A stretch of 64,000 nt of DNA. It comes from a virus. The notes below the pieces were generated by a model, which saw only the letters and a program-made list of their open reading frames with translations, was not told the origin of the DNA and searched no databases. The stretch lies in UHGV virus genome UHGV-1550212. One strand, given 5' to 3'. Position numbers and translations under genes: made by a program. Positions 29,156 through 61,089 of this stretch are shown one piece after another (positions within the stretch are counted from its first letter, which is position 1; every line of letters begins with the position of its first letter).

Positions 29156-30214
29156 TTACTGCTTCAAGCCTGTGAACAGTTCATACTTGAATGCAGGCCC
29201 TGCTGTGTAAGCCTCAAAGTAGAAGTCACCAATATTGATGCTTGCAATAGCGTCATCGACAGCTTTCTTGTAGCCTACACGTTCAATTGTCTGCTTATCG
29301 CATTTACGCCAATATGTGCTGTGCATCATAAGCGTGGGTGATGCAGCATAGTCTACTGCAAGCTGTTGTTTTGCAGTGTCAATGTGATGTTCATAGATGT
29401 GCACATCATTGCCAGTCCAAATGAACTCTCTTGCCACACAGTTAGTCAATGTTGCAACAATATGTGTAAGCAATGCATATGATGCGATATTGATGGGCAC
29501 ACCAAGACACATGTCACAGCTACGCTGAGTAAGCGCACAGTCAAGCCACATGCTTGGTACTTGAGCAGAATCAAGGCATTCTGCAGAACCATCATGCACA
29601 AGCATGCTATCATTAGCAATCTGAATTCGTTCTTCAAGAGTCATTGGCTGACAATTGAACTGAAACAGCATATGACATGGCGGCAATGCCATCTGAGACA
29701 TTTGCGCAGGATTCCATGCAGACACGACTTTGTAGCGGCCAGTTGGATTGATGACAATGTCTTTAATGCAAGTTGCAAGTTGGTCAAATCCACTGTCATT
29801 GAAGTTGCGCCACTGATACCCATAGATAGGTCCGCAATCACCATACTCAGGTTTGCTGAATTTTGTGTTGTGCAGTTCTGTGCACCAAGTGTCAAAGTCG
29901 ACATCTTCACCTGGATGCAGCTTTTGCCAATGACGATATGCATCCTGATGCCAGAACTTTGTAATGCCAAGCGTGTCAAGCGTTTTGACATTAGTGTCAC
30001 CTGACATAAACCACAGAAGTTCTCCAATGACGCCTTTGACAAACATTCTCTTGGATGTCAACAGTGGAAAGCCTTTACGCAAATCAAATCGCATTGATTC
30101 TACAAACAATGACTTTGTGCGAGGCATGTTTTCACGAGCAGGTTCCTTAAATCTGCCATGCTCAATAACATTATTAAGTACTCTCAAGTACTCAGTGTCG
30201 TGTTTGATATTCAT
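29156..30214 (-). CDS. thyA: thymidylate synthase (ThyA family, dUMP-specific type)
   Basis: ThyA blocks GELLWFMSGDTN, GPIYGYQWR, SAWNPAQMSQMALPPCH, QRSCDMCLGVPINIASYALL (Asn retained), WTGNDVHIY; ~60-aa C-terminal extension. Confidence 0.85.
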   Translation of the reverse strand: MNIKHDTEYLRVLNNVIEHGRFKEPARENMPRTKSLFVESMRFDLRKGFPLLTSKRMFVKGVIGELLWFMSGDTNVKTLDTLGITKFWHQDAYRHWQKLHPGEDVDFDTWCTELHNTKFSKPEYGDCGPIYGYQWRNFNDSGFDQLATCIKDIVINPTGRYKVVSAWNPAQMSQMALPPCHMLFQFNCQPMTLEERIQIANDSMLVHDGSAECLDSAQVPSMWLDCALTQRSCDMCLGVPINIASYALLTHIVATLTNCVAREFIWTGNDVHIYEHHIDTAKQQLAVDYAASPTLMMHSTYWRKCDKQTIERVGYKKAVDDAIASINIGDFYFEAYTAGPAFKYELFTGLKQ

Positions 30215-30875
30215 GAATGGGATGTTTATGAGTGTCTAATGATATGTCTGAGAATTCATATGCATACTTTGATATTGCAACACCATTTGCGTCTTCAAAT
30301 GCTTCTGTAAAGTTGCTGTCAATCCATCGTTTGACAGACTTAACTCCGCCTAAATGACATGCTGCAAGCAATGATGCTTCGGTTATTATAAATGCGCTAT
30401 CATTGTATGTCGCTTTACGCCCAATTGCGTCATAGCAATTGTAGTGCTGCAGCAATTCTTGTTGACGTTCAAGTAGCATATGCTGTGCCGCAATCTGCTT
30501 TGTAGAATCTTTGGCAATTTCTTGCAGTGACCAAGTCAATCCTTTGTATCGTACCAAGTCATCATGAGCAATCTTTGTTAGCTGCCATCGCCCTGTTGCG
30601 CCAAATCGATTTGTGATATGCCAACGATTACGAGATTCAAGATAGCCCAGCTTGTCTAAGTATTCTGCAAAGCTGCAAGTTTCTGGTTCAGTGACGTCTA
30701 ACAAGACGTGTACATTTGACAAATTTGCGACTGGCGCATATGTGACATGTTTTGTTGCAGTGCAATCACATAATGTCGGCCATGCAATGATAAAAGCAAC
30801 ACCAATTTTGATGAGCGATTCACATAATCTTATCATTTGTTTGAAATTAGTGAAGAGCACTTGCAGGCAGCTCAA
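30192..30875 (-). CDS. membrane-anchored lytic transglycosylase-like (SLT domain) protein
   Basis: YLESRNRWHITNRFGATGRWQL resembles the SLT motif ES..N..A.S..GA.GLMQ; N-terminal hydrophobic anchor. Confidence 0.5.
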   Translation of the reverse strand: MSCLQVLFTNFKQMIRLCESLIKIGVAFIIAWPTLCDCTATKHVTYAPVANLSNVHVLLDVTEPETCSFAEYLDKLGYLESRNRWHITNRFGATGRWQLTKIAHDDLVRYKGLTWSLQEIAKDSTKQIAAQHMLLERQQELLQHYNCYDAIGRKATYNDSAFIITEASLLAACHLGGVKSVKRWIDSNFTEAFEDANGVAISKYAYEFSDISLDTHKHPIHEYQTRH

Positions 30876-33437: not shown

Positions 33438-34319
33438 TTATCGTTTGAATTTGATGAAGTGTTCAGCATCAAGGCCCTCAAATATGTACGGGTCAAGAGT
33501 TTCCCAGAAGTTTGAGTATGTCGTTGTCTTTGCAATACTTGTCTGCTTTGACAAGTTCATGTTTGGATAGCCAAGCATTGCATAGTGTCGCTCATATATG
33601 TGCATTGACGTTGCATTATGCATATAAGCGCCAAGCTTAAGACCAAGTTCATTTGCGACAAGTTCTTGCAACAAAGTGAATGCAAACTGGTCGTTACAGA
33701 AGCCCCAAATGACATCATTGCTTCGCATATATGTTGTCAAGTACAGCTTATCACCACGAACATTGAAAACAAGATTCAATGTGCACGGCATATCTTTGCC
33801 AGTGTAGTTTGCATATTGCGGCTCATAAATGCTAATAACTGCTCGTCTTGTGCATTCATGATTTCGCAAACGTTCAATGACATCTGCAATCTGCTTGTGC
33901 CAAATTGCGCCATACTGTGAATTGACATTGACGCCATCATCACTGAACTGCTTCCAACGAGGCAAATAACGTTCAATGCATTCAACTGCAGGATTGGCTG
34001 TCATATACCATGCAAATTCTGCAGCAGCATTGAGCTTTTTCCATGGTCGTACATCAATCTTGATTTGTCGCTGTGAAGGGTCCTGAATAACTACAGACAC
34101 ATTCAGCAATTCTTTTGTTCGAGTCACTGTTTGTGCATTGTTGCCCTTTGATTCTACAAACTCACCTCTACAATGAAGTTCATACAAAATTGAGCGAAAT
34201 GCTTCTGTTGCAGTGTTTTCAACGATTGTCGTCTGTTGATAGCATAAATTTGACGACAATGCTTCAGCATCATTGTACTTTATGCTGTCATTGTCATAAG
34301 GTGAATTTTTTGTGTGCAT
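33438..34319 (-). CDS. ThyA-family pyrimidine hydroxymethylase/methylase, cytosine-specific type (dCMP hydroxymethylase-like)
   Basis: ThyA-like blocks EFAWYMTANP, YGAIWHKQ, TRRAVISIYEP, DMPCT (catalytic Cys), YMRSNDVIWGFCNDQFAF where the ThyA Asn aligns with Asp; start trimmed to 34319 to avoid a 116-nt overlap. Confidence 0.55.
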   Translation of the reverse strand: MHTKNSPYDNDSIKYNDAEALSSNLCYQQTTIVENTATEAFRSILYELHCRGEFVESKGNNAQTVTRTKELLNVSVVIQDPSQRQIKIDVRPWKKLNAAAEFAWYMTANPAVECIERYLPRWKQFSDDGVNVNSQYGAIWHKQIADVIERLRNHECTRRAVISIYEPQYANYTGKDMPCTLNLVFNVRGDKLYLTTYMRSNDVIWGFCNDQFAFTLLQELVANELGLKLGAYMHNATSMHIYERHYAMLGYPNMNLSKQTSIAKTTTYSNFWETLDPYIFEGLDAEHFIKFKR

Positions 34320-34344
34320 ATTTTGGGATGTTTGTTTTTTATTA

Positions 34345-35439
34345 TCATACAACGATAGTATCTCGTTTGCAATCTGTTTTGTCAAATATTGAACAACAAT
34401 ACGATGCAGATTGTTCTTTGATTTCAAGAGCTTCATCATTATCAAGTGATGAAATGCCATCTATGTATGCTTTTGCATTGCCAGCAATGTCATCATTTGT
34501 TAACAACGCTGCACGACGTTCAGTGCCAAAGAAGCCAAAGCACAATTGATGTTGCAGTGCTTCACGAGAAGTCTTGTCATCAAACTCTGATTTCATGTGT
34601 TGCATAAATTCGACAATATCATCAATGTCGCATTGAGTAAAGTCAATGCACAATTTATGCATGTACTTGAATCGTTTGTAGTCTGTTGCAAGAATTTCTG
34701 GGTGCACAATGAACAACGTCTTTTTGCTGTCTATTGGATTTGCAATGACTGATGCTTGAACATAATCGACAAGCATACCAGATTCACGAAGTTGCTCAAT
34801 TGTTTTGCCAAACACATGCCCAAGCGTGTCATCAAACCACTTCAAGTATGCTTCACTGTCTTCATCTTTTGACGCGCCAACAATGTAAATCTCATTGACT
34901 CCAAGTGCTTTGAGACGAGTATCAGACAACATAGTATTCAATTGATGCTGCACGTACAGCATTGGGCTGCTATGCAAAACCGTTTTAACAATCTCACAAG
35001 CAATGTCCATATATGCATAGTCAAGCTTTGCAGATTTTGACACATACACTGCACGTTGCTGCAATGGCTCAATTGCCGAGCATGTAGTTACAAAGTTGCC
35101 AACACATTCTGCTACTGCAATGTCATGCAAGTCATCTGCAATGTACACAATACTTGACAAGTCATCAAATGTTTGAACAAGTTGCTGAAGCTTTGTTTTG
35201 TAATTGCAGAGCATCAATGACTTGATGTTGCAATTACTTAGCATTGTCTTGATGAGTCGTTGACCTGCTTCAGTGCTGTCACCAGAAATGACATGCACAT
35301 CGCAGTCAAACCAGTTCAGCATGTCAATTGCATGCCGAACACCATATTGCATTTGTTTTGCAAACTTACCAGATTCATTGAACAGCATTTCACCTGACAT
35401 AATGCCGTCAAAGTCACATACGATTTGAAGTCTGTCCAT
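34345..35439 (-). CDS. HAD-superfamily (KdsC-like) sugar-phosphate phosphatase domain protein with unknown C-terminal domain
   Basis: IVCDFDGIMSGEMLFNESGKF (DxDG motif I), VHVISGDS, YIADDLHDIAV (motif IV), resembling KdsC/YrbI-type phosphatases. Confidence 0.5.
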   Translation of the reverse strand: MDRLQIVCDFDGIMSGEMLFNESGKFAKQMQYGVRHAIDMLNWFDCDVHVISGDSTEAGQRLIKTMLSNCNIKSLMLCNYKTKLQQLVQTFDDLSSIVYIADDLHDIAVAECVGNFVTTCSAIEPLQQRAVYVSKSAKLDYAYMDIACEIVKTVLHSSPMLYVQHQLNTMLSDTRLKALGVNEIYIVGASKDEDSEAYLKWFDDTLGHVFGKTIEQLRESGMLVDYVQASVIANPIDSKKTLFIVHPEILATDYKRFKYMHKLCIDFTQCDIDDIVEFMQHMKSEFDDKTSREALQHQLCFGFFGTERRAALLTNDDIAGNAKAYIDGISSLDNDEALEIKEQSASYCCSIFDKTDCKRDTIVV

Positions 35440-40155: not shown

Positions 40156-41390
40156 GACTTTATGTACAATTCTGCAAGTTGTCTGGTGTACAGTCGTGGA
40201 TTATGATATGCTTTCCAATACGCAGTAGACTTTATTGCAGCAAGAATTTCATCATAATGTTTGACTGCTTCTGCTACAACTTCATCAAGCACGCTCAAAT
40301 CTTCTACACTGACAAGCAACCATTTTTCTACAATATCAATGAACTCCTGATTGCAATTGAAGCCATACTTGTAGTTGCAAGTATCAAGTACAAGTGGAAT
40401 GCAATCATTTGTCAATGCTTCAAAAAATCTACGAAGACTGAAACAATTCTCATCATATGATGGAATGCTCAATGTAAACTTGGCAGTCTTGATGAGTTGC
40501 AAATACTCTTCGTATGGAATCAGAGGACCATTGTGCTTCCATTGATTATTGTGTCGTCTTGTCGTGTACTTGAACAAAAACTTTGAATTGTCAAGTTCAC
40601 AAAGATGGTCCATGCGTAAAATGTAGTTATAGCGGTCTCTTCTGTCAGGCCAACTGTCAGTCATCGCAAACACAAAGTCTCTTTGCTTGTCACATTTTGC
40701 TGACATACCTCTATGCTGACACATGCAATACCAATATTGCTGCGATGGGCTGAACTCAAACTTTGAATGATGCTCACTTCCATCTTTGCATTGCTGAACA
40801 TAAATGTTGTCAGGCACAAAGTGAAAATAAAAGTGTCGAATTTGCAAGTCATTGATGTAGTCAAGCTTATGCTGCAATGGGTCTTCACAGAAATTGTAAC
40901 ACTGAATATGCTTTGCTGCTGCGTACTCAGCAACTATGAACGTGCACATCCATTGCAATGCAATATCTTCACTCTTCAAAAAGTTTACAAGCGGCTCATT
41001 TGGATGCGCTTTGCATTCATTGAACATTTTGTACCACTTGCATTGCTCCATATCGTACTTTGATACTGTATTGCCATTAAAGAACGACACAGTGTCAATT
41101 TTGAATGCATCAAGTTGTTTATGCACAATGTCAAGTGCTTGTGCGTATGTGATTGTCTCATCAGACATTATCTGCGCAAACTTGATTGGATGCGCATGCA
41201 AATTTGCGATAGTGTCTGCCGACATTTTACGCTGTGTGTGATAATCGACATACAAAAACTGACACTTGTCTGTAAGCAATTCAAGCATTGCTACAGATTT
41301 CCATCGAATTGCTTGAAAGAAATTGAAGTGTGCAGTTTGAAAGATGAGATGCGTAGGTTTATCAGAATGAGTCAAAGTTTGCATGGACAA
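40152..41390 (-). CDS. putative glycosyltransferase-like protein (cassette copy A1)
   Basis: Paralog of 44432..45988 (shared EDPLQHKL, PSQQYWY, FTLSIPSYDENCFSLRRFFEAL...CIPLV); the last block resembles a GT-B C-terminal motif. Confidence 0.4.
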   Translation of the reverse strand: MSMQTLTHSDKPTHLIFQTAHFNFFQAIRWKSVAMLELLTDKCQFLYVDYHTQRKMSADTIANLHAHPIKFAQIMSDETITYAQALDIVHKQLDAFKIDTVSFFNGNTVSKYDMEQCKWYKMFNECKAHPNEPLVNFLKSEDIALQWMCTFIVAEYAAAKHIQCYNFCEDPLQHKLDYINDLQIRHFYFHFVPDNIYVQQCKDGSEHHSKFEFSPSQQYWYCMCQHRGMSAKCDKQRDFVFAMTDSWPDRRDRYNYILRMDHLCELDNSKFLFKYTTRRHNNQWKHNGPLIPYEEYLQLIKTAKFTLSIPSYDENCFSLRRFFEALTNDCIPLVLDTCNYKYGFNCNQEFIDIVEKWLLVSVEDLSVLDEVVAEAVKHYDEILAAIKSTAYWKAYHNPRLYTRQLAELYIKS

Positions 41391-42547
41391 ATGTCGCAGT
41401 TATGTTGATGTTTGTGTTTATTTATGAAGTCATATGTCACTGCAAAAAAGTGCTTTGCAATGTCATATCGAGTTTTCAAATATGCTGCTTGGCGTTCACA
41501 AAACGCTGCATAAATGTCTGGGTGTCGTTTGAATGCAGCAATGCGTTGCTGTACTTGTTCTGCAGAATGTACATATGACACTTTGCTCAAATATGCATCA
41601 TCTGCAAATAATCGTCTGTCTTTGTCAACTGCGCAATCAACAAAAGTTGCAATTCGTGCAACAATGGCTTCACCAACACGATTTGGCATCAACCCATATT
41701 GCTCATATTGTTGGTCACCGATAGCAATGTGCGCTGCTGCATATGACATTGCATATGGCACACTATAAAATGGCACACTAAAATCAAATGAGCAATTTGA
41801 CTGTAGTAGTTGCGTTTGTGCATCAGACAATCTACTTGTCAAGTTGCCTGTATGTTTGTGCTCACCAAGAAAACTTGAGCGACAACCTGAATCTACATAG
41901 TATCGAATGACTTTGTTTATGCGACTGTCAGATAGCATATGCCAATCTCTTGTAGCATATATCAAGTCTACTGTTTTTGCACCAATATGACGAGGCTCTA
42001 TCGCAACATTGCTGTATGTTGGCAGCATGAACAATGGCAGCCATTTGACATTGTTGAACACTGAATGTTCATTTGACAAATTCATGCACTGGCTAAGTTC
42101 AAGTACTGGCTCATCATACACGCCATGCAGTTCAACTCTGCCTGCATGCACAAAGTTGACACGCTTAAATGGAAATCGCATATCAGTGCAAACCGTCATT
42201 CTTGCTGCAGTAGACATTCGCCACATAGCATGCAGCTTAACAACTGCTTCGGCTTGAGGTCGAGGCAGCATATTTAGCAAATCAATCCAGCCACCCCACA
42301 AAATCCAAACATCATTTGAACAGATGTTGAATTGCAAACTCAATATGTCTTCTACTGTTGCAGCAATGATGTCATGCCCATTGATGCTTGCAAGGTGCTT
42401 TCGTTGATTTGCAATAAGAATGACTTGACTGAACGGAGACTCTGGAAATGACACAAGCGCCTTTGCAAACAACACGGGTTCTTGTGATACCAAGTTGTTT
42501 GAGTATGGGTCGATTATGCAATCAAGCTTGTGTATGAAAAGTCTCAT
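41372..42547 (-). CDS. hypothetical enzyme-like protein (cassette copy B1)
   Basis: Paralog of 45985..47151 (shared N-terminus LFI.K.D, TDxRF.F, L.PNR). Confidence 0.45.
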   Translation of the reverse strand: MRLFIHKLDCIIDPYSNNLVSQEPVLFAKALVSFPESPFSQVILIANQRKHLASINGHDIIAATVEDILSLQFNICSNDVWILWGGWIDLLNMLPRPQAEAVVKLHAMWRMSTAARMTVCTDMRFPFKRVNFVHAGRVELHGVYDEPVLELSQCMNLSNEHSVFNNVKWLPLFMLPTYSNVAIEPRHIGAKTVDLIYATRDWHMLSDSRINKVIRYYVDSGCRSSFLGEHKHTGNLTSRLSDAQTQLLQSNCSFDFSVPFYSVPYAMSYAAAHIAIGDQQYEQYGLMPNRVGEAIVARIATFVDCAVDKDRRLFADDAYLSKVSYVHSAEQVQQRIAAFKRHPDIYAAFCERQAAYLKTRYDIAKHFFAVTYDFINKHKHQHNCDICPCKL

Positions 42548-45988: not shown

Positions 45989-47151
45989 GATTTGAATGTT
46001 TGTTCAAGAATTGTATAGCACTGTGCAATCATTGTTGCAAGAGCTTTTTGCTGAAGCTGTTTGCAATTTGAAGATATTGTGTATTGCTGACGCTCAGTTG
46101 TAGTACTGCTTAATGTCGCAAATTGCAGGTACTCATCTTCTGACATGATATCAGCAAACAATGCAGACAATTCATAATCTACAATGACATTTGAGCAGTT
46201 TGCAAGTACGCCTTCAACCCATCGATTTGGCAACAAACATGCTTGCACATACAATGAATCGCCGACTACAAGATTGCACATTGACTGCGACATTACATAC
46301 GTCATCATGTCATATGGCACTTTGTACTTAAGTGTGAAGTTTTGTGCTGCTGACTTAATTGCTTGCAGAATTGTGTCATCAAGATATGATGTTATAAGGC
46401 AAGTATTGTATGCCTGCATAATGTAACGCTCAATCACGCTTCTACGATACTCGTCAAGATATGTGAAACCTGCACAACTTGCACAACATGCATATTGCTG
46501 CTTTATGTCAGCAAAGCTACACACATGCGCTTCAATTGCATTTTGCATTGTTGCTTGTCGTTTGAGCAATCTTGGCTCTTTAATGCATTGAAGCTTCAAT
46601 GCATTGACTGCTGCAATGATTTGCAATGGCACAAACACGCATTGAGACTCATCAAGCCAAGCATACTTGAGATTTTTATGTTGACACAGATGCGTAATGT
46701 TGTCTTTTTGTGATTCTAAGTACTCTTTGTAATTATGCAATCGCTTTGTCAATGTGCACTCTTTGTCAAAATCAAATCGCAAATCAGTTGTTAGTGTAAA
46801 TTTGCGAACATTTGACAAGCACCATGCTTTGAATGCATTCCACAGAACATCTTGCTGAAATTCTGAACAATGTTCAAGAGCAGCCTTTGAGCCCTGCCAG
46901 AATATTGCGCAATCATCTGATTTTGCACACTTCAGCATATCTTGCCATGCATGTATGCTATTGATGATATGCACTTTATTATGCACAAGCTCATTAAGTG
47001 TTGCATGCTTGTTCTCAGGGTCGCCAAACACGTATACTGTATCAAACATTGTTTGAACAAACCCTGCAAATGCAATGGGTTCTGTATGTTTAAGATGCTG
47101 TATGTCTGAACGCACACATGTGTCAAATTTCAAAATGAAGAGTTTGCTCAT
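45985..47151 (-). CDS. hypothetical enzyme-like protein (cassette copy B2)
   Basis: Paralog of 41372..42547; promoter at 47181-47210. Confidence 0.45.
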   Translation of the reverse strand: MSKLFILKFDTCVRSDIQHLKHTEPIAFAGFVQTMFDTVYVFGDPENKHATLNELVHNKVHIINSIHAWQDMLKCAKSDDCAIFWQGSKAALEHCSEFQQDVLWNAFKAWCLSNVRKFTLTTDLRFDFDKECTLTKRLHNYKEYLESQKDNITHLCQHKNLKYAWLDESQCVFVPLQIIAAVNALKLQCIKEPRLLKRQATMQNAIEAHVCSFADIKQQYACCASCAGFTYLDEYRRSVIERYIMQAYNTCLITSYLDDTILQAIKSAAQNFTLKYKVPYDMMTYVMSQSMCNLVVGDSLYVQACLLPNRWVEGVLANCSNVIVDYELSALFADIMSEDEYLQFATLSSTTTERQQYTISSNCKQLQQKALATMIAQCYTILEQTFKS

Positions 47152-47848
47152 ATGCTTTGCAATTATCTATTACATGTTGATATTGTACTTCATCTATGAT
47201 GTGATTTGCAATGACACCATATGACGTGTCATACATTGGCATCTTCTCATATGACAATGCTGCGTCAAGATTGCATATCACATAATTGCAATGCACAATG
47301 TCATCTACATTGTCACTAACTGCTACGATATTGACGCAATTTGCAAGAAATGCATCATCAAAGTCTACTTGATTGCATGCAACCTCATAATCTGCAGCAC
47401 TTCTTGGGTACCAATATAACTCAATGCCGGCACTACTAAGTAGTCGCAAGCCATCTATGTGATGATACAAGTCAACAAAATGCACTTGCTTAACGCCTGC
47501 TTGCAAAATAAGCTTTGCGCAATCAATGCATGGACTATATGTTACATATAGCACTGCGTCATTTGCAGTCGCATTGCCATATTTGCACAGCTTCATCAAT
47601 GCATTTGATTCTGCATGCAAAACTTCTTTGTTGGTTTTGATGCCTGCTGATGTTGCATGTTCACAACAATTTGACATGCCAGTTGGCATGCCATTGTAGC
47701 CATCTGAAATTATGCAGCCATCTTTTACAAGCAATGCGCCGACTTTTGCTCGCTGAGCATGTGAATTTAATGACCAGAGCTCAGCCATTTTAAGATATAT
47801 GAGATTTCGTTGAAACCACTTTGTTTCAGACCAAGTTAGCCATTTCAT
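47123..47848 (-). CDS. dCMP deaminase (zinc-dependent cytidine/deoxycytidylate deaminase family)
   Basis: HAESNAL and YSPCIDCAKLI zinc-binding motifs; ~90-aa C-terminal extension. Confidence 0.8.
   Translation of the reverse strand: MKWLTWSETKWFQRNLIYLKMAELWSLNSHAQRAKVGALLVKDGCIISDGYNGMPTGMSNCCEHATSAGIKTNKEVLHAESNALMKLCKYGNATANDAVLYVTYSPCIDCAKLILQAGVKQVHFVDLYHHIDGLRLLSSAGIELYWYPRSAADYEVACNQVDFDDAFLANCVNIVAVSDNVDDIVHCNYVICNLDAALSYEKMPMYDTSYGVIANHIIDEVQYQHVIDNCKAYEQTLHFEI
47181..47210 (-). promoter_or_regulatory. sigma70-like promoter (TTGCAA-N18-TACAAT)
   Basis: Upstream of 45985..47151, inside the 3' end of the dCMP deaminase gene. Confidence 0.45.
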
Positions 47849-52878: not shown

Positions 52879-54474
52879 TCAAAGCTTGAATTTTTGCACT
52901 TTTGCATCTACTGGCATCTTTTCAGCGTCATAGATTCGTTTTCGAGCAGCAAAGTGTTGCATGTCATAATTGCAGTAGCAATAGCCTTTGCGAAGCTTGA
53001 CAAGCATATCACTGTGAATTGTAAGCTTATGTGCAATATCAATAATGATTGCTTTCTGCTTAAGTGGATGCTTACGCAACAGTCGCCCAATTGACTGCAA
53101 TGTTACGTTGTCAGATTTGCCAATCATCAAGAATGCAGCATAAAACCAAGCATGCACAGATACGCCTGTAGATAATGTACCAGTTGTTGCAATCATGATG
53201 TGTCTGTCAGGCTCTGCTTCCATCATTGCAAGCATGTCTTTGCGTTCATGCAAGGGTACATCACCTCTAATGATGTGAACAACCTTGTCAACACCAGACT
53301 GCTGTATGAATGTTTGACAAGCATCATAGATGTTCTGCACATGGTCTCGTCGTTTGCAAAGTACAAGAGCATTTTTGTCAAGCGAACAAATGATTTTTGC
53401 AATGAGCTTGTTAGCATCGACATAGTTCATGCAATGATGTTGTTCTGCTGGAAGCAGTCTTGCAGTGTTATCAAACACTTCAGGATGCTCTTCAAGATAC
53501 TGCACAAATGGCGCATCATATTCTGCTGAATGCTCAATGACTACTCGTTTGATTTCAAAGTCAGACACAATGTTCTTTTCAAGTGCTTGAGCTACGCCAA
53601 ATGTGCCCAATATTGGCCCAATGTATGATTCAATTGTCAAACGAGCTGCAGTATGCTCAAGTGGCAATGAACCAGACACTCCAAGACGATAATGAGCTTT
53701 TGTGCAATGACTGAAGATTTCACGAATTGATGCTGCAGGTGCACCATGAGCTTCATCAGTTACAATGAAGTCAAACTGTTCGAAAAAGTCTGCTGGCATA
53801 TTGACAAGACTTTGATATGTGCCGACAACCATATCTGCATCTTGCATCTTGTACTCATTGCGAACACCTGAATGGATTTTGTAGAGTTTGTAATTCTTGT
53901 TTGCTAAATCTGACTCATTTTGTTGATAGCTGACAACAATATCGTCAAACGCTTGTGACACGAGATGCACCGAGGGCACAATCATAAGTGTTTTGCCATT
54001 GATTCTCTTGCTGTCTTTTAAGAAGCGACTAATTACATAAACAAGAGCTGTTTTGCCATAAGAAGTCGCAAGGCGCAAACAACATTTCTTGAATTTGCAA
54101 GCAGTCAAAATGAATTTGAGCTGGTCATCACGCATGTCAAATGGCATATCAAGACATTCTGACCATTGCTCAAGCTCTTCAAGTGACACAATGCGGTCAA
54201 AGTTGTCAATGAGGCCCTCAATCTTGACTTCATATGGAATTGGCTTACGCAATTGTAGGTCCCAGATACGCTTCCATAAGCCAAATGGCAGGTATACGCC
54301 ATTGAACACATAGCAAATTTGCCCATTCCAATCTGTTTTGCGTCCTTTGCGCTTATTGACTGCTGCTGCAACAAAGTTTGGCACTTCTGCAGTAGCTTCA
54401 GCATACAATTGCTTGACTTCCAAATCATTTGCTTCGACAATCTGAAGCAAATCGCCTATGACTTTAAGTCTCAT
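52879..54474 (-). CDS. SF2 DEAH-box helicase (UvsW-like)
   Basis: Motif I LATSYGKTA, motif II IVTDEAHGA, motif VI QSIGRLLR; start trimmed to the ATG at 54474 downstream of the terminator hairpin at 54491-54528. Confidence 0.75.
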   Translation of the reverse strand: MRLKVIGDLLQIVEANDLEVKQLYAEATAEVPNFVAAAVNKRKGRKTDWNGQICYVFNGVYLPFGLWKRIWDLQLRKPIPYEVKIEGLIDNFDRIVSLEELEQWSECLDMPFDMRDDQLKFILTACKFKKCCLRLATSYGKTALVYVISRFLKDSKRINGKTLMIVPSVHLVSQAFDDIVVSYQQNESDLANKNYKLYKIHSGVRNEYKMQDADMVVGTYQSLVNMPADFFEQFDFIVTDEAHGAPAASIREIFSHCTKAHYRLGVSGSLPLEHTAARLTIESYIGPILGTFGVAQALEKNIVSDFEIKRVVIEHSAEYDAPFVQYLEEHPEVFDNTARLLPAEQHHCMNYVDANKLIAKIICSLDKNALVLCKRRDHVQNIYDACQTFIQQSGVDKVVHIIRGDVPLHERKDMLAMMEAEPDRHIMIATTGTLSTGVSVHAWFYAAFLMIGKSDNVTLQSIGRLLRKHPLKQKAIIIDIAHKLTIHSDMLVKLRKGYCYCNYDMQHFAARKRIYDAEKMPVDAKVQKFKL

Positions 54475-54490
54475 GACATGACTTGTTATG

Positions 54491-54528
54491 AAAAAGAGGC
54501 TCAGACAGACATTGTTTGTCTGAGCCTC
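54491..54528 (-). terminator. intrinsic terminator
   Basis: 11-bp stem GAGGCTCAGAC/GTCTGAGCCTC, U5 on the minus strand; downstream of 54554..55684. Confidence 0.6.
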
Positions 54529-54553
54529 GAGCATCTTTGATGCGTTTGTGCTA

Positions 54554-55684
54554 CTACTTGAGCCCGTTGATGAATGCTTCAGTTTCAGCATCCATCGTTG
54601 CTGCTGCAGGTGCTGCTGCCGGAGCTGCTGCAGGTGCAGGTTCTGGTGCAGGCGCTAAAGCTGCTGCAAACGGGTCAATGGCTGTCTGAGCTGCTGGTGC
54701 AGTAGCAGGCGCAGCTGCCTGAGCTGTTGCAGGTGCAGGCTGAGTAGTCTGTGCCTGCTGAGCTGCTGACGAATTGATGACAATGTCAGGCCAGATATCC
54801 GACACATCCTTGTAGTTAGCAAGGCGCATCTTAACCTGACGCTTGATGTCATCAGAAGCTTCGTGGTAGCCCCACTCCTTTTCGACATTCGGGTACTCCT
54901 TGAGCATGTCGACAATCTGCTGCATAATTTGCTGCTTGTATGCAGGGTCAGTGTCATACTTCGCCTGGTCAACAAGCGTGCCATCTGCAAGCAGCATCGA
55001 CGATACGTTGGGCGAAATCGTCGAAGTCTCGTAGTCACGCATTTCAACGCCATTGACGTCTTTCAGCGTAATCTTCAAGAGAATGTCGTGGCCCTTAACG
55101 GGATGGAACATGTCCATAGGCTGAGCACCCATCTGGATGTCTTCGTCGGTAGGCTTCATTGCAGACATGCAACGCTTGTAGATGGCTGCAGGGAGTCGAT
55201 ATGGGAGTACTTTCCCAACGTTCTCAGGGTGCACTGAATCAGCCTTGATTTGCACGAGGCAAGTGTACTGACTCTGCATGCTGAACTCTCGCTTTGCAAG
55301 CGCTTCCTGCTGAGCATCCTTGGTATTGATGAGTTCCCAGTAGAATGCCGAAATGGGACACCATCCATAGGGCTTCATCAAATTTTCAGGATTTTCAGGA
55401 TGCGGATTCGGCGAGCTCGGCGAATTGTAGCGGAAGCCCTGATTAGCGCCAGTGCCAAACCAGTAGTAACGGACGATTGAAATCGGCACCGCGGGGTCAT
55501 TCAAGTTCGGCAGAATTCGAATGACTGCTCGATAGATTCGGTCCTTACTTTCGGAAGGCTTAGGATTAAAAAACTCAGGTCCTGCAGAACGTTCCGGCTT
55601 AGCAAAGCTTGCTACATTGTCCGGCTGGACATCAAAGATTGACAGCGGCTGATTACCGGTCTGCCCATTTTCAATTTGTGACAT
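54554..55684 (-). CDS. hypothetical protein with Ala/Pro-rich low-complexity C-terminal region
   Basis: 376 aa; visibly GC-richer codon usage than neighbours; C-terminal (AP/AAP)n linker then a short conserved-looking tip; possible abundant DNA-binding protein. Confidence 0.5.
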   Translation of the reverse strand: MSQIENGQTGNQPLSIFDVQPDNVASFAKPERSAGPEFFNPKPSESKDRIYRAVIRILPNLNDPAVPISIVRYYWFGTGANQGFRYNSPSSPNPHPENPENLMKPYGWCPISAFYWELINTKDAQQEALAKREFSMQSQYTCLVQIKADSVHPENVGKVLPYRLPAAIYKRCMSAMKPTDEDIQMGAQPMDMFHPVKGHDILLKITLKDVNGVEMRDYETSTISPNVSSMLLADGTLVDQAKYDTDPAYKQQIMQQIVDMLKEYPNVEKEWGYHEASDDIKRQVKMRLANYKDVSDIWPDIVINSSAAQQAQTTQPAPATAQAAAPATAPAAQTAIDPFAAALAPAPEPAPAAAPAAAPAAATMDAETEAFINGLK

Positions 55685-55800: not shown

Positions 55801-56967
55801 TTATCTTGCATGACCACAGTCATCTGCAAGCAGTTTAGCATGACCGCAGTCATATACTGCAACATAACCGACGTCAATCATCTCTTGTTCATCTTGACCG
55901 ATATCTTCAATATGTTCTTTTGTCTTCAAATGACACCAGTGCTTATGAATGGTTGACTTGTCATCTGACAACTGCGGGTTGAGCGCGAAGTCAGCTGAGT
56001 CTACTTGTTCACCTGCAAGATGCTTTCTAATGGCGTCAATGACTTCGTTGTCATCCATCCATTCGAATATTGTAATGCAAGTGTAGCCATGCTTAAGAGC
56101 AAGTTGAGTTTTGTCGAAGTGGTAGAATTTGCCAACTGGCTTATTGTGTTTTGTGCGCCCAGTTAAATATGCAAAGCCATATGTTGCATTGTGTGACCAA
56201 AGAGGATTAACTTCAATCAAAAGTTTGCAGTATTCATTACAATAGTCAAGGTCATATGACCATCGCCCAAGATTGACATTATCAAGCCCGCAATCAATAC
56301 CAAGTTCTTGCAGCAATTTGTCGTGCCACCAATGGTTTGCTCGTGATTTTACATGACCTTGAGCATCACGGCATTTAGTAGTCATACAAAACCATGGCAC
56401 ACCATGTCGTTCCATATTGACTTCTTGAACGCGTTCAAGATTGCCGCTCTTATTGCCATAACGTTGCTGTTTTGTTTGCAATGCAGCATCAATATTGCCC
56501 CATGCATTGCCATATCGTTTTACAACAGTTTGTTTGCGTTTTTCAACATCACAGCACTTATTGCCATATTTACGCAATTTAGTGTCAAATGCTTTTTGTG
56601 TATTGCCTATGCCACGTTTGCCCCATTTGCGCTCTTTGCCTTGTTGACATCGTTCTTGGTCACCCCATGTGCTGCCATATCGTTCTAAATTTGTTTGTCT
56701 ACGTTTTTCAACATTGCCTGCTTTGCATCCATGTCGTGCTAAATTTGTTTGTTGTTGTTTAGCTACGCAATCTTTGTTACGTGCAGGAAATTCAACGCCT
56801 AATGAACGTAGACAGCCAATTCTACGATTATAATTACGTTTAATATTGCCGTGTGATGTTTTACAAGGCCCATATCTTACAAACTCAGTTGTTCTCAACA
56901 ACTCATCTCGCTCTTGCTCAAGCTCTGCAATGCGCTTCTCAAGAGCTTCACCAGTTAGTGGCGTCAT
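55801..56967 (-). CDS. tandem-repeat protein (RYG/KYG units) with C-terminal nuclease-like domain; paralog of 1777..2976
   Basis: Same architecture: LTGEALEKRIAELEQERDELL coiled coil, repeats (ARHGCKAG, ERYGSTWG, KYGNKCC, RYGNAWG, RYGNKSG), C-terminal LLIEVNP...H. Confidence 0.55.
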   Translation of the reverse strand: MTPLTGEALEKRIAELEQERDELLRTTEFVRYGPCKTSHGNIKRNYNRRIGCLRSLGVEFPARNKDCVAKQQQTNLARHGCKAGNVEKRRQTNLERYGSTWGDQERCQQGKERKWGKRGIGNTQKAFDTKLRKYGNKCCDVEKRKQTVVKRYGNAWGNIDAALQTKQQRYGNKSGNLERVQEVNMERHGVPWFCMTTKCRDAQGHVKSRANHWWHDKLLQELGIDCGLDNVNLGRWSYDLDYCNEYCKLLIEVNPLWSHNATYGFAYLTGRTKHNKPVGKFYHFDKTQLALKHGYTCITIFEWMDDNEVIDAIRKHLAGEQVDSADFALNPQLSDDKSTIHKHWCHLKTKEHIEDIGQDEQEMIDVGYVAVYDCGHAKLLADDCGHAR

Positions 56968-57719
56968 TTCACTTCAGGTTTTGCTTGCTTGGCCAACTCA
57001 GCTTCAGCATTGAACTCTTTGCCCTCAGCTTTCATTGTTTCAGCATAAGTCTTTTCATCAGTGTAACGTTCTACGCCATCACCAAGCAGTTTTGCAACTT
57101 CATCATCTGCTTCAAACAATGGCTGTGGATTGTCATCATTGTCATCTTTGAGTTGCTCAAATGTGCTGTTATGCTTTTCTGCAATTTTGATGAGGTCAAC
57201 GATTGAACGAGTTACGAGTTCACCATTGATGCCTGACTGTTGTTCAGATTGACCAGTGCCTTGTTGCAATTCTGCTTGAGTTGCTCGAACATTATTATTG
57301 AGTGATGCAAGTACATTGGGAAGAGTTCGACAATATGATATATATTGCTGAACCAACGACATTGCATCATTCTGCAGTTTGATGAGAAACGCAAACTCAC
57401 CCATGCCTCCGCCTTGTGCATCAATGCGCTCGAATACTGAATCAAGTGCATGCATTGCATAGAACACTTGTTTGCAAAGTAAATTGATGTTTGTCTTCTC
57501 CATCTCAATTGATGCATCGATAAATGGCGACTTAACATCTGCTGCTATGCACAATTTGCGAACTTCATCAACGTATTTTGAACACTTGTCAAGTGTCTTG
57601 TCAAGTTTGCTTCGGTCAAACTGCTTGTAAACTTCTAACGCATCGCTTACTTCTGCAGCATCCAATATTGCATTTGCTGCAGCCAATTCTGATTCTCTGC
57701 TCATCTCAAAATGGTCCAA
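56964..57719 (-). CDS. hypothetical acidic protein
   Basis: 251-aa ORF with ATGA overlap to the upstream gene. Confidence 0.45.
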   Translation of the reverse strand: MDHFEMSRESELAAANAILDAAEVSDALEVYKQFDRSKLDKTLDKCSKYVDEVRKLCIAADVKSPFIDASIEMEKTNINLLCKQVFYAMHALDSVFERIDAQGGGMGEFAFLIKLQNDAMSLVQQYISYCRTLPNVLASLNNNVRATQAELQQGTGQSEQQSGINGELVTRSIVDLIKIAEKHNSTFEQLKDDNDDNPQPLFEADDEVAKLLGDGVERYTDEKTYAETMKAEGKEFNAEAELAKQAKPEVK

Positions 57720-58315
57720 GCTTCAATAATTGCTGAAAAATCTTCAAATGACATCGTAGTATAGCCTGCGTCGCCCCAAGATACACCCCAGCTATTCTTG
57801 ATGATGAATGCGTCTTTTGTGTAGCCCACAATTGACACTGCATGACCACCAAAATTACCATCGCCTTTCCAGAAATGCTCAGCTTCAATGTCTTTTACGA
57901 GCATGCCAACAAATACAGGCCCATTTGCCACAACAGCAGATTTGACTTCATCAATTGTGTAACAACGTCTATATGCAGTTATTGGCAATTGCTCTGAGCC
58001 CTTTGACATCTTGATTGGCTGCGCTTTGAGCAACTTAAAGACGTCACGTGGAATCATGCCCTCTTGAGGCGCATTTGAACGACGCTCATACAATGCTTTG
58101 ATGTCAAGCTTGCCTTGCATAGACAGCACAGAAGACCACCAGTCAATCATTGTTGCTGCTGTGTAAGCTGCACACATTGATGTACTGCCTTGGTCTTCTA
58201 CTTGAAGTTGAGCCAACTTGTACACAAGTGGCAAATCAGTTTTTGCATCAAAACGCAAGTCTCTGTCATCTTTAGGTGACTGGATGTAGCCCAGTCCATA
58301 TGTTGTATGTTTCAT
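57701..58315 (-). CDS. papain-like (C1 family) cysteine peptidase
   Basis: Catalytic-triad contexts QGSTSMCAAY (Cys), GGHAVSIVGY (His), IKNSWGVSWGDAGY (Asn-Ser-Trp). Confidence 0.65.
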   Translation of the reverse strand: MKHTTYGLGYIQSPKDDRDLRFDAKTDLPLVYKLAQLQVEDQGSTSMCAAYTAATMIDWWSSVLSMQGKLDIKALYERRSNAPQEGMIPRDVFKLLKAQPIKMSKGSEQLPITAYRRCYTIDEVKSAVVANGPVFVGMLVKDIEAEHFWKGDGNFGGHAVSIVGYTKDAFIIKNSWGVSWGDAGYTTMSFEDFSAIIEAWTILR

Positions 58316-58330
58316 ATCAGATAATGTATC

Positions 58331-58603
58331 TCATTGCTCATGCCAGTGCCTTGTCAAGTCAAACATTGCTTCACGTTGCGCCTTTGTGCATTTCGTAGTA
58401 CCTTCCACAGCTGTAATATCGAATGTAGCATAATTGCTCAAGTTCTGCAACTGGGTCATATGCAAGACTAATTGGCATATTGTATGCGTCAACAACTCTG
58501 GTTTGAGCTTTTGCAACAATATGTCAGCAGTTTTGCTATGTTCAGCAAAGTCACAGTAGGTGACTTGGCCTGATGGGCTTAACCAGCAAGATTGCATTGT
58601 CAT
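58331..58603 (-). CDS. hypothetical small protein
   Basis: 90-aa ORF. Confidence 0.35.
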   Translation of the reverse strand: MTMQSCWLSPSGQVTYCDFAEHSKTADILLQKLKPELLTHTICQLVLHMTQLQNLSNYATFDITAVEGTTKCTKAQREAMFDLTRHWHEQ

Positions 58604-58974
58604 TCATTTGGTTGAGGCTCAATTCGCATAACTACACGCACAGAATCTCTGTAAGGATACACTGATGCGACAATCAAATACCAACGTTTGTTGTCAACTT
58701 TGCCATTTGACTTAATGTATGGCGCTGAAGTAGTAATGTATCGAGCATGTTTGAATGTCGTATCTACTCTTGCAACAAGACAGGTAGAATCAGTCACTTG
58801 AGCATGCCACACATCAATTTCTGGTAAATACGTGTTATGAGCATTGCATACACTATCAACAAATTCTCGTGGTTGCAAAGTGACAGTTGACACATATGTT
58901 GGCTTAACTGCAGCGCATGCAATGCATACAATTGCAATGAACAACAATGTAAATCGTTTCATATTCTTAGACAT
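58600..58974 (-). CDS. putative lipoprotein
   Basis: N-terminal MKRFTLLFIAIVCIACAA signal with lipobox-like Cys. Confidence 0.45.
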   Translation of the reverse strand: MSKNMKRFTLLFIAIVCIACAAVKPTYVSTVTLQPREFVDSVCNAHNTYLPEIDVWHAQVTDSTCLVARVDTTFKHARYITTSAPYIKSNGKVDNKRWYLIVASVYPYRDSVRVVMRIEPQPNE

Positions 58975-59236
58975 TTTGTAGTTCTACAATATCATATCGC
59001 TTATGCAATTCAGACCAGTCATGAACGTAGCCTGTCATAAAGACGTGCAACATGTGTGGCTTGTTGTCAGCATACTTGACTGCACCTGCAGCATCTTTGA
59101 TTTGCTTGGCTGTTAGCCAAACTTCTGCATTGTTGTTTGCATACACGCAACGATACACCGGTTCTGATAATTCAGTCACTGTGATTTTCTTGCCATTGCG
59201 AAGTATGCATCGTACTTGTTTGTCCATTGCTTGCAA
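58967..59236 (-). CDS. hypothetical small protein
   Basis: 89 aa; shares a C-terminal GYV..W.EL...Y pattern with 59551..59745. Confidence 0.4.
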   Translation of the reverse strand: MQAMDKQVRCILRNGKKITVTELSEPVYRCVYANNNAEVWLTAKQIKDAAGAVKYADNKPHMLHVFMTGYVHDWSELHKRYDIVELQNV

Positions 59237-59257
59237 TTTATGATATTGTTAAGATAT

Positions 59258-59554
59258 CTACAAAAAGCAATACACCATAAAACCCAAGAACATAATTATT
59301 GCAGGCTGCATGATGCAATACATAAAGAAGTGTGCAGCAATCGGCAATTCACTGAACTTGTTAAATGCGTCATGATTCTTGAACAATGTCAGTACAAATG
59401 ATATCCCAATTGCATGCTTAAGCGATAACGCAGTCAATGCGGGCCACACAGGCATCACAAACCACTCCCAGAAGTTCATAATAATGCAGCCATTCAGAAT
59501 GTAGCCTAACAGCATGAACATAATGCATGCAACAGTTGTCAGAAAGTTTTTCAT
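59258..59554 (-). CDS. membrane protein
   Basis: 98 aa, three hydrophobic helices. Confidence 0.4.
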   Translation of the reverse strand: MKNFLTTVACIMFMLLGYILNGCIIMNFWEWFVMPVWPALTALSLKHAIGISFVLTLFKNHDAFNKFSELPIAAHFFMYCIMQPAIIMFLGFMVYCFL

Positions 59555-59745
59555 ATACGCTCAAGTTTTATGATGTCAGTTCTTAATGATTTGTATACAG
59601 CAAATAATTCAGTCCAGCCTCGTACATAACCAACGCCGATTACATGCAATGCGTGTGCATCTGGTTTTGTATGGCAATGTCTTGCATGAGGCTGCTGTTC
59701 AAGTTCTGCTTGTGTAAGATAAACCTTTGATGTGTCATCATACAC
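59551..59745 (-). CDS. hypothetical small protein
   Basis: 64-aa ORF; track start is GTG, true start uncertain; weak paralog of 58967..59236. Confidence 0.3.
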   Translation of the reverse strand: MYDDTSKVYLTQAELEQQPHARHCHTKPDAHALHVIGVGYVRGWTELFAVYKSLRTDIIKLERI

Positions 59746-59972
59746 AAAGCATGGAAATACTGGCTATGCAAGTTCTGTTATGTCAATGTCTTGGCCATTA
59801 GATAGCCTTGCAAGATATAATGTGTTAGTTTGCATATTACATTGAGATATTAAGAATTCGCTTGACTACAGAATCGATATCATTGTTTACAGAATTGCGC
59901 AGTTACATGTGAACATTAGAATCAATGAACAAGTTATGAAACGTTGACGCAGCTTGAACAACTTGTTCGATT

Positions 59973-60263
59973 TTATGCTCGTACGAGTTTGATGACACAG
60001 TGCCGACAAGCTGCAAAAGTACTCAATATTGTTTCTACTTTGACACTGTACTGCACGTCAATGACACGATATGTGCCACACAATGCAGACATTTCTTGAC
60101 GACGTTCTGCAGGTACATTGACACTGTCTGTCAAATTGATGATTGCGCCAATCTGCATAGATGACATGACTGCAAATTGTTCGGGACCTACTTCTGCTTT
60201 GCGATATGCGACTTGTTTGTTGTTTTCGCAAATGCTGAATGCTACTATATAATCTGGTGTCAT
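59973..60263 (-). CDS. hypothetical small protein
   Basis: 96-aa ORF. Confidence 0.35.
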   Translation of the reverse strand: MTPDYIVAFSICENNKQVAYRKAEVGPEQFAVMSSMQIGAIINLTDSVNVPAERRQEMSALCGTYRVIDVQYSVKVETILSTFAACRHCVIKLVRA

Positions 60264-60275
60264 GATAGTCGCGTT

Positions 60276-60755
60276 TTATTCATTATCGTCATCATATCCT
60301 ATGCAATCTTCAAGACTTGCAAAGTCATCATCAAAGTCATCGAATTCAGGCTCTTTATTGCACCATTTGTAAGGTGGATTGTTGAGCAATTCAAGCTCTA
60401 TTGCATTTGACTGTGCAGAAATCGGAACATATTCGAATGCTTTGACTGACATGTTAAATTTGATACAATGCAGCCACGGAAACATATCAGTGTCCTCATG
60501 CACAATTGGCTGACGAACGTAGTCTTTCATTGCAATGAACTTGCTGCTGTCGTCCCAGTCTTCAATAGGTATTTCAAACTGCGATATGACAGTATGACAG
60601 CTTTCAAAGAAATTGCAGGATACACCTACAATAACATGAGAGTCTGTACGTTGGCGTTCTATTGCAAGAAAGTCATATTTCTTAGAAAGACGAACTTCTC
60701 CATGCTTCTCTAAGAAGATTTTAAGAAGCTCTTTGTTAATGTCGTTGATGTTCAT
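60276..60755 (-). CDS. hypothetical protein with strongly acidic C-terminus
   Basis: 159 aa ending EFDDFDDDFASLEDCIGYDDDNE. Confidence 0.45.
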   Translation of the reverse strand: MNINDINKELLKIFLEKHGEVRLSKKYDFLAIERQRTDSHVIVGVSCNFFESCHTVISQFEIPIEDWDDSSKFIAMKDYVRQPIVHEDTDMFPWLHCIKFNMSVKAFEYVPISAQSNAIELELLNNPPYKWCNKEPEFDDFDDDFASLEDCIGYDDDNE

Positions 60756-60777: not shown

Positions 60778-61089
60778 TTAATGCCGAGTTTTTGCAGATA
60801 TAGCTACTTTAATTGTTGCTTTAATTTGTTCGATTGCATCTTGTGAGAACAATTCTGACACTGCTAAATAGTGATACCATGATGTTGGCGCTGCCTGCAT
60901 ATCAGTTCGTTTAATTGCGAACCGAAGTTCTTTTGGTGAACCAAGGCAACCCATATATTGGCAGCTTATTAGCTTAACTTGCACATTGTTAATGCTGCTA
61001 TGAATAGCAAGATGAGACAGATTTATTCTGTCATAGAATTTTAGATGCTTGAGTTGTTTTTCAATTGCTTTGAATGTGTTTGTGTTCAT
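60778..61089 (-). CDS. hypothetical protein
   Basis: 103-aa ORF with promoter at 61128-61156 and the shared initiation context. Confidence 0.4.
   Translation of the reverse strand: MNTNTFKAIEKQLKHLKFYDRINLSHLAIHSSINNVQVKLISCQYMGCLGSPKELRFAIKRTDMQAAPTSWYHYLAVSELFSQDAIEQIKATIKVAISAKTRH

Follow-up and report, generated by a model that had tools for sequence, protein, structure and literature searches.

A lipoprotein–C1A peptidase gene pair of Bacteroidales phages and its possible role at lysis

A 64,000-nucleotide (nt) stretch of the virus genome UHGV-1550212, referred to below as the window, encodes a papain-like cysteine peptidase of 204 amino acids (aa; 57701–58315, minus strand) and, upstream of it with one small gene in between, a 124-aa protein with a signal and a lipobox-like motif (58600–58974, minus strand). 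Judged from the sequences of many phage loci, these two genes are co-inherited as a near-obligate, usually translationally coupled pair across unrelated contexts in Bacteroidales phages. From these relatives, the pair is inferred to be a two-gene unit that may act late on the host envelope, at lysis – a reading held here with roughly even confidence. The C1 enzyme family was already known in phages, and the obligate lipoprotein partner and the link to lysis appear to be undescribed. A search of full-text literature returned no paper joining endolysin, C1A and papain, and none describing a lipoprotein–peptidase pairing.

The peptidase and its lipoprotein partner

The 204-aa protein is a genuine short-form, xylellain-type C1A cysteine peptidase with the full Gln/Cys/His/Asn set and a two-lobed papain fold (short forms are 185–220 aa here, long forms more than 220 aa). 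An initial annotation of the window, made from the sequence alone, had noted C1 peptidase contexts in this ORF (open reading frame). In the family databases it matches PF00112 (Peptidase_C1) with 41.5 bits and an E value of 2e-10, the gathering cut-off being 20.7, and phrog_16701 (‘peptidase’) at 1e-20; its score against PF13529 (Peptidase_C39_2) is 20.3 bits, below the cut-off of 24. A phmmer search of PDB sequences gave 161 C1 chains at E ≤ 1 (lowest E value 7e-8), and these include ervatamin, mexicain, papain and cathepsins (1e-7 to 1e-6) as well as xylellain. In the PDB alignments, GGH158AVSIVGY and IKN174SW176G fall onto papain His159, Asn175 and Trp177, and in DQ42GSTSMC48 the Q42-x5-C48 spacing equals that of papain Gln19–Cys25. 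Gln42/Cys48/His158/Asn174/Trp176 are the equivalents of papain Gln19/Cys25/His159/Asn175/Trp177; the catalytic residues Q42, C48, H158 and N174 align with those of papain, so the identification stands. These positions are conserved – Q42, C48, H158, N174 and S175 are invariant in an alignment of 34 sequences, with W176 nearly so (≥90%), and all six are invariant among 25 aligned short-form phage homologues.

An AlphaFold2 (AF2) model of the peptidase, built with an alignment, has a mean predicted local distance difference test score (pLDDT) of 92.9 and a predicted template modelling score of 0.90. In Foldseek, the PDB entry that this model matches best is xylellain (3ois; E 2.7e-14, TMq 0.81); papain, Der p 1 and cathepsins come next. 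There are 261 structural matches at E ≤ 1e-3, and all 50 among the matches listed are C1 peptidases.

The peptidase is unlike secreted C1A zymogens in propeptide, signal and disulfides, features that are optional for C1A membership. Hydropathy analysis found no signal peptide or hydrophobic N-terminus (41 residues precede Q42), a Pfam scan gave no match to the I29 propeptide, and there are no disulfide cysteines, the protein holding two Cys in all. With none of these features, the peptidase would be made as a cytoplasmic, disulfide-free protein. PADLOC and NCBIfam gave no match for it. The phage peptidases have a conserved N-terminal motif of their own, G-(F/Y)-(I/V)-x-S...D, which in the window reads GYIQSPKDDRD.

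C1 peptidases were initially described as rare in phages, a statement that does not hold: at least 426 IMG/VR stretches from metagenomic phages encode relatives of the window enzyme. It has already been noted that Myoviridae, Siphoviridae and giant viruses gained short C1A peptidases of the xylellain type by horizontal transfer (PMC10380794).

Two features of these relatives are recorded here as side observations. In most short-form phage peptidases the catalytic Cys lies within C-V-P-C, a CxxC at a helix N-terminus, where the window has C-A-A-Y; as in thiol-disulfide oxidoreductases, this arrangement suggests a possible redox switch. Some relatives also point to altered genetic codes. The peptidase ORF at 8001–8660 of locus L004 (ENA MUNK22-1 scaffold_190, 49 kb) has in-frame TGA codons exactly at conserved W sites (NS*G, EA*T and EF*N), and TGA is apparently a sense codon for Trp in this phage contig. 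In Prevotella phage Lak-A1 (MK250016.1; L200 3935–4564), the peptidase is a full 209-aa short form only when TAG is read as Gln.

The 124-aa partner protein has a basic n-region, a hydrophobic core (hydrophobic segment at residues 4–31) and Cys20 within a lipobox-like C-I-A-C. Against a local hidden Markov model (HMM) of its family the window protein scores 59 bits (E 1.6e-16), and Cys20 aligns with the invariant lipobox Cys, the sole invariant column of the family alignment. Family members are ca. 100–125 aa long and have lipoboxes such as LSC, TGC, IGC and VSC, basic residues past the Cys, and a shared motif, (V/I/F)DS(M/I/V)C...LP...W; after signal cleavage the mature partner would be about 85–105 aa. 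A PS51257-like lipobox is found in 50 of 60 distinct family members, and acidic residues after the lipobox Cys in none of the 60. Acidic residues after this Cys are the surface-export mark of Bacteroidota lipoproteins, and from their absence it is argued that the family is not surface-exposed, which suggests that it faces the periplasm. Taken together, these features suggest an exported, lipid-anchored protein. In the window protein, cleavage by signal peptidase I after A-C-A and before the next A may be an alternative.

The lipoprotein is a member of no described family, and its family is uncharacterised. Searches of Pfam, PHROGs, NCBIfam, PADLOC and PDB sequences gave no match to it, the PDB search extending to E ≤ 10, and no similarity to staphostatins or cystatins was detectable. 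A library of 1.84 billion proteins holds at least 251 cluster representatives of the family at E ≤ 1e-3 (clusters at 50% identity), all of them small and single-domain. The partner evolves much faster than the enzyme, with a mean column identity of 26% for the lipoprotein and 51% for the peptidase. The family has a beta-alpha-beta4-like conservation pattern, which together with the C1 target had suggested a cystatin-like protein. An AF2 model from a 13-sequence alignment reached a pLDDT of 51.5, and Foldseek with this poor model returned nothing below E = 2. Comparison by hhalign with approximate sequences of four cystatins gave probabilities below 0.1%, which leaves the cystatin-like reading unproven. 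No covariation between the lipoprotein Cys (DSxC) and the peptidase C-V-P-C motif was seen by eye in the two alignments.

The association of the two genes first showed in distant homologues, at locus L004, whose contig has a faint P22-portal match, and at L005 on a crAss-like contig. At each of these loci, a signal/lipobox protein of ca. 96–99 aa is encoded directly upstream of the peptidase and has a (V/I)DS(V/I)(C/S) motif in common with the 124-aa protein of the window. With an iterated HMM over ORFs, the lipoprotein was found in 45 of the 86 peptidase-holding sources (85 loci and the window), always beside the peptidase. The gap between the genes is −4 to +11 nt in most loci, often an ATGA overlap. 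After dereplication at 80% identity, the lipoprotein accompanies 32 of the 36 short-form clusters by HMM and one more by inspection (the L035 group, ...FQVGCSS...QSIDSAMK), or 33 of 36. It accompanies none of the 27 long-form clusters; many long forms come from giant-virus bins.

The reverse search, in which IMG/VR was queried with a lipoprotein profile from a tighter alignment subset and the loci were then checked for the peptidase, gave the same picture. All 30 lipoprotein loci had a 200–213-aa C1 peptidase directly downstream, and no orphan lipoprotein gene was found among them. The link between peptidase and lipoprotein that was proposed from the window alone is thus borne out as a conserved adjacent gene pair in many phage lineages.

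Only three short-form peptidases were found in bacterial genome bins (185,579 species genomes): one in a Bacteroidales metagenome-assembled genome (MAG), one in Prevotella sp. CAG:1092 and one in a ‘Clostridia’ MAG. The lipoprotein is present at all three. At the protein level, the closest phage relatives of the window peptidase are those of Lak megaphages, at 35% identity. The bacterial-bin hits and the matches to the Lak (Prevotella) megaphages point to Bacteroidales as hosts.

Carriers of the pair include jumbo phages, a single crAss-like contig and further contigs, and its flanking genes differ wholly between phage lineages. In group A, NrdD/NrdG are on one side of it and a gp25 baseplate wedge gene (PF04965) is on the other. 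In group B, it follows a gene for a protein of ca. 950 aa with a weak tail-sheath match (PF04984, Phage_sheath_1; E 0.0026, below the Pfam cut-off). The L009 family has it after a coiled-coil gene and a gene for an 87-aa protein with several transmembrane (TM) segments, the latter directly upstream of the lipoprotein gene, and in the window and the L030 group its neighbours are replication genes or unknown ones. A terminator hairpin and a promoter-like motif of its own accompany the pair in groups A and B, where from this layout it looks like a bicistronic operon.

A possible role at the host envelope

The initial annotation proposed an envelope-directed or lysis-related cassette, and this is made plausible by relatives of the pair rather than by the window itself. 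In all three annotated cultured-phage loci that were examined, a C1-type peptidase is encoded inside a lysis cassette. The peptidase gene of THSA-485A (family-profile match at 3e-38) directly follows one for a GH25 endolysin with a peptidoglycan-binding domain. In Gordonia phage Aleemily (1e-16), the ‘cysteine protease’ gp29 lies between the lysin A genes (gp26 and gp27) and a holin (gp30), a membrane protein and lysin B. In Arthrobacter phage Mufasa8 (2e-17), peptidase gp26 comes directly after holin gp25. A similar arrangement including the lipoprotein is found in L017, a 254-kb contig with the order lipoprotein, holin-like protein, peptidase and second signal-anchored protein. The intervening protein has 107 aa and two TM segments and matches phrog_1299 and phrog_1129 ‘holin’ (6.8e-7); the small protein after the peptidase (6552–6908) is hydrophobic near its N-terminus and has a lipobox-like I-I-S-C.

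Group B gives a hint of how the pair may be regulated. The 8-mer CTATTTAT lies 15–50 nt upstream of an ORF start in 26 of its 38 occurrences, compared with 1.9% expected. It precedes the sheath-like gene, conserved neighbour genes for proteins of 162 aa and 134 aa, and the lipoprotein gene, among others, and is often just past a hairpin and T-run. An extended form, (A)CTATTTAT(A/T), occurs in the group-B loci L031, L032, L048, L064, L065, L070, L073, L075 and L044; the window does not have the motif. In the group-B phages it probably serves as the late promoter, and its placement suggests that the pair is under the same regulation as the adjacent structural-region genes.

Among the predicted viral structures of BFVD, close neighbours of the peptidase model carry phage-protein names such as ‘Peptidoglycan binding-like’ (484 aa), ‘N acetylmuramidase’ (385 aa), ‘Copper amine oxidase’ (373 aa) and ‘Endolysin’ (Gordonia phage OneUp). 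These database names suggest that the peptidase fold is fused to wall-related modules in some phage proteins.

As the partner is predicted to be exported and lipid-anchored, at least half of the unit would work in the envelope. The peptidase would build up in the cytoplasm, with no access to the periplasm until the inner membrane is permeabilised at lysis, and there the pre-positioned lipoprotein could meet and bind it. The partner may position or activate the peptidase at the interface of wall and outer membrane, or may restrain it until that moment, and the enzyme would then cut peptide bonds in the wall or in proteins of the envelope, aiding the release of progeny. The absence of orphan copies, together with the coupling to an enzyme and not to an i-spanin, supports a docking or activating role for the lipoprotein. 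A more specific form of this scheme, put forward tentatively and on balance unlikely, is a so far unrecognised two-component lysis device of Bacteroidales phages, in which the lipoprotein would capture or gate the protease after the inner membrane has been breached and the protease would cut the protein or peptide links between wall and outer membrane.

Bacteroidales are the dominant Gram-negative order of the human gut. To our knowledge, little is understood of how their phages break the envelope, and searches for canonical spanins often fail. If true, a two-component lysis device would replace or supplement spanins by proteolysis in a phylum where these are largely unidentified, and a mobile, widespread two-gene unit is a candidate for a lysis or lysis-control function that is missing. 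Family C1 would thereby gain a role at the bacterial envelope, and the unit might provide a new pair of protease and partner, maybe inhibitor, for biotechnology. If the pair is only an accessory protease and a chaperone-like partner, the value would be mainly in better annotation of two common phage gene families.

Several observations weigh against a role at lysis. In the window, the pair is part of a long operon of overlapping genes, near those for a homing-endonuclease-like protein, a gp32-type single-stranded-DNA-binding protein (SSB) and a helicase, a replication context. Scans with Pfam, PHROGs and NCBIfam recognised no holin, endolysin or other lysis gene in the window, and no further lysins were found among 10 more of its unannotated ORFs. 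We know of no peptidoglycan hydrolase in family C1; those cysteine peptidases that are known to cleave the wall come from other families of clan CA (CHAP and NlpC/P60). In the cultured phages a conventional endolysin accompanies the C1 peptidase, which may be only accessory there. Moreover, these lysis-cassette examples are from Gram-positive or actinobacterial phages, do not have the lipoprotein partner and are ca. 27–30% identical, and the putative fusions to wall modules are judged from database names. On the partner's side, the protein initially annotated as having a lipobox does have the signal and the aligned Cys, with the caveat that the C-I-A-C of the window is non-canonical and gives no strict PS51257-like match, and the structural model is too poor to tell anchor, activator and inhibitor apart. 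Finally, a Lak-like subclade of short forms with the active-site motif T-C-V-C-Q-S has no adjacent lipoprotein (Lak-A1, where none is detectable, L082 and L084).

An alternative that overlaps with action at lysis, differing only in the role of the partner, is that the lipoprotein is a periplasm-anchored inhibitor or immunity protein of the peptidase, which would shield the envelope from leaked or incoming enzyme or time its action. The partner gene is first and translationally coupled, the order expected if a protector must be made before the enzyme. The faster evolution of the partner, its size after signal cleavage and its occurrence with 32–33 of 36 short-form and 0 of 27 long-form clusters are also in favour, as is the precedent of bfp and bfi in B. 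fragilis, a member of the same host order (PMC2873492). Yet Bfp and Bfi are both exported, while the phage enzyme and its putative inhibitor would be made in different compartments, and the phage partner resembles neither staphostatins nor cystatins nor any PDB chain in sequence and has no usable structure. The logic of inhibition has analogues in staphostatin with staphopain and, as does that of exclusion, in T4 Spackle with the gp5 lysozyme. Immunity and exclusion genes often stand alone, which the lipoprotein, beside the peptidase in 30 of 30 loci, does not, and the outer membrane already guards cells against external enzyme. The inhibitor reading is considered rather unlikely.

Two further alternatives separate the peptidase from lysis altogether. 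It would be a cytoplasmic protease of host takeover or counter-defence in one of them, improbable in our judgement, with the lipoprotein serving indirectly (e.g. in superinfection exclusion) and linked by co-expression only. The enzyme has neither a signal peptide nor disulfide cysteines, the window copy lies amid genes for replication and nucleotide metabolism, and no holin is recognisable near most loci, all as a cytoplasmic role would have it; the near-obligate, two-way adjacency in unrelated contexts argues instead for a direct link in function with an exported protein, as do the homologues in lysis cassettes and the promoter-like motif common to the pair and tail genes for a late envelope role, and PADLOC gave no match that would point to counter-defence. 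In the other, which is very improbable, the peptidase is a virion-borne entry enzyme of the tail or baseplate, and the lipoprotein blocks the same enzyme of superinfecting phages. This draws on the two groups in which the pair is beside a gp25 baseplate wedge or tail-sheath-like gene and shares the promoter-like motif. It is difficult to reconcile with a bare 200-aa catalytic domain that has no tail-attachment module, with the position of the pair far from structural genes in the window, L005 and the L030 group, and with the lack of orphan lipoproteins among the loci found.

The locus in the window and its relatives

Every long ORF between 54.5 and 61.1 kb of the window is on the minus strand, with transcription from high to low coordinates and overlaps of a few bases at most gene junctions. 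Given this strand, the lipoprotein and the small genes are upstream of the peptidase gene and not after it, the reverse of the order in the initial annotation, in which the peptidase was followed by the lipoprotein. In transcription order, the genes listed begin with ORFs of 103 aa (60778–61089), 159 aa (60276–60755), 96 aa (59973–60263) and 64 aa (59551–59745). These are followed by a 98-aa membrane protein (59258–59554) and an 89-aa cytoplasmic protein (58967–59236), whose stop overlaps the start of the lipoprotein gene. A 90-aa cytoplasmic ORF (58331–58603) lies between the lipoprotein and peptidase genes. After the peptidase comes a 246-aa acidic protein (56964–57704; 251 aa from an upstream TTG), its ATG overlapping the peptidase stop (ATGA), and then the homing-endonuclease-like protein (55801–56967), the gp32-type SSB (54554–55684) and the helicase (52879–54591). 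A scan of 56.5–61.5 kb of the window for sigma-70 promoters and terminators was no better than in shuffled sequence.

One relative is L006, a 175.6-kb IMG/VR contig that is 94% identical. An identical peptidase sequence is also found on a 176-kb ENA metagenome contig (ERZ27261301 k119_106340), the source contig, and on metagenome scaffold ZEEV15-1. A megablast search of 50,697 phage records gave no DNA-level relatives of the region.

In the lineage of the window, L006 and L089, a cytoplasmic gene of ca. 98 aa is inserted between the lipoprotein and the peptidase, and an acidic protein of 246–254 aa follows the peptidase. The inserted ORF has 98–99 aa in L006 and L089 and 90 aa in the window, where deletions of 1 and 23 nt relative to L006 leave it open with ca. 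33 central residues, the middle third, out of frame. This stretch covers a GYIRYC(N/D)W motif that is conserved in L006 and L089. No family match was found for the 90-aa ORF in Pfam, PHROGs, NCBIfam and others. The 246-aa acidic protein has no significant family match; its conservation downstream of the peptidase is confined to this lineage (L006 and L089 by phmmer), with a weak counterpart in the L030 group, and it is only a possible member of the unit.

The initial annotation also placed membrane and small proteins in the cassette. The membrane protein at 59258–59554 is real – hydropathy gives it 3–4 hydrophobic segments, and it matches phrog_2169 ‘membrane protein’ at 1.7e-6 – but this gene and two paralogous small ORFs, together at 58967–59745, are found only in the window and L006. 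Since these genes are lineage-specific, the conserved cassette consists of two genes and not of all of 57701–59554. The 98-aa membrane protein was considered as a holin, and this was rejected: it has no holin family match, and its C-terminus is hydrophobic with no charged tail. The two paralogues are the 89-aa ORF and the ORF at 59551–59745 (35% identity, E 1e-17 by blastp). From its position, the 89-aa ORF probably shares a transcript with the pair, of which it is no conserved part. PADLOC and NCBIfam found nothing for the small ORFs near the pair.

Further strain features are found upstream. The 64-aa ORF is what remains of a 98-aa paralogue; it is the tail of the 98-aa gene (59551–59850 region of the window), cut by an in-frame TAG where L006 has CAG (Gln). 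It could be either a pseudogene or a case of TAG read-through. At ca. 59750–60020, a deletion of ca. 770 bp relative to L006 has removed most of a 307-aa gene (L006 3501–4424), whose first and last codons persist as short ORF fragments. The 90-aa ORF and the truncated 64-aa ORF have identical sequences in three independent assemblies (L001–L003), so these changes are real strain features.

The window as a whole covers that part of a large phage which serves replication and nucleotide metabolism, with genes for DNA polymerase, an SbcCD-like nuclease and helicases and thymidylate-synthase-like genes. It encodes two thymidylate-synthase-family proteins, a beta-glucosyltransferase-like protein and a dCMP-deaminase-family protein (29156–30214, 33438–34460, 41372–42547 and 47123–47848, all on the minus strand), a set that resembles those of phages with hydroxymethylated or glycosylated bases. 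The ORF at 30192–30875 (minus strand), which overlaps the end of the thymidylate-synthase-like gene at 29156–30214, had been annotated as an SLT lytic transglycosylase; Pfam, PHROGs, NCBIfam and PDB sequences gave no match to support this. No tRNA genes were found in the window. An IS1595-family transposase gene (Zn_ribbon_IS1595 and DDE_Tnp_IS1595; L001 669–1589) is located ca. 50–970 bp past the right end of the window, close to where the 176-kb source contig ends.

Comparison with known systems

The window peptidase is of the same Pfam family and fold as xylellain (PDB 3ois) and papain C1A enzymes and has the same Gln/Cys/His/Asn/Trp set. It is only 23% identical to xylellain, from which it differs in having no I29 propeptide, signal or disulfides and in its own N-terminal motif. 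The phage gene is also coupled to a lipoprotein gene, and none has been reported for xylellain. Literature searches turned up no study on what the phage copies do.

The Bfp/Bfi proteins of B. fragilis and the staphopain/staphostatin systems are similar in layout: a gene for a clan-CA peptidase lies beside one of 116–138 aa with a signal or lipoprotein signal, and Bfp is from the same host order. In B. fragilis, the bfp (C10) and bfi genes are within 35 bp of each other and co-transcribed, lipoprotein signals are predicted for Bfi1B and Bfi4, and mobile elements, one prophage-like and one CTn-like, carry two of the bfp genes (PMC2873492). The peptidases of these systems belong to C10 or C47, however, and the phage enzyme to C1. 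The Bfp enzymes are exported lipoproteins with pro-regions, whereas the phage peptidase has no export signal, and no sequence similarity is detectable between the phage partner and Bfi or staphostatin.

Gram-negative lysis cassettes (Rz/Rz1 o-spanin, T1 gp11 u-spanin) likewise have a small lipoprotein gene beside the gene for a signal-less enzyme that degrades wall or envelope. Both spanin types were considered for the 124-aa protein. The u-spanin was rejected, as neither the window protein nor the family alignment has a C-terminal TM segment. The o-spanin is disfavoured, as most loci of the pair have no TM i-spanin neighbour; an i-spanin-like one is found only in L005 (269 aa, N-terminal TM and coiled coil) and possibly in L017, and the window and groups A, B and C have no such gene. 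The lipoprotein is larger than typical o-spanins, with a conserved alternating pattern that may indicate a folded domain (the model has the low pLDDT given above) in place of a short and proline-rich chain. It is also coupled to an enzyme and not to the other spanin subunit.

The actinophage lysin A ‘protease C39 domain’ and the CHAP and NlpC/P60 endolysins have the same clan-CA fold, used there for wall cleavage. The window protein differs from these in being a true PF00112 member with the Asn-Ser-Trp motif. Both kinds, lysin A and a C1-type peptidase, are encoded in the lysis cassette of Aleemily.

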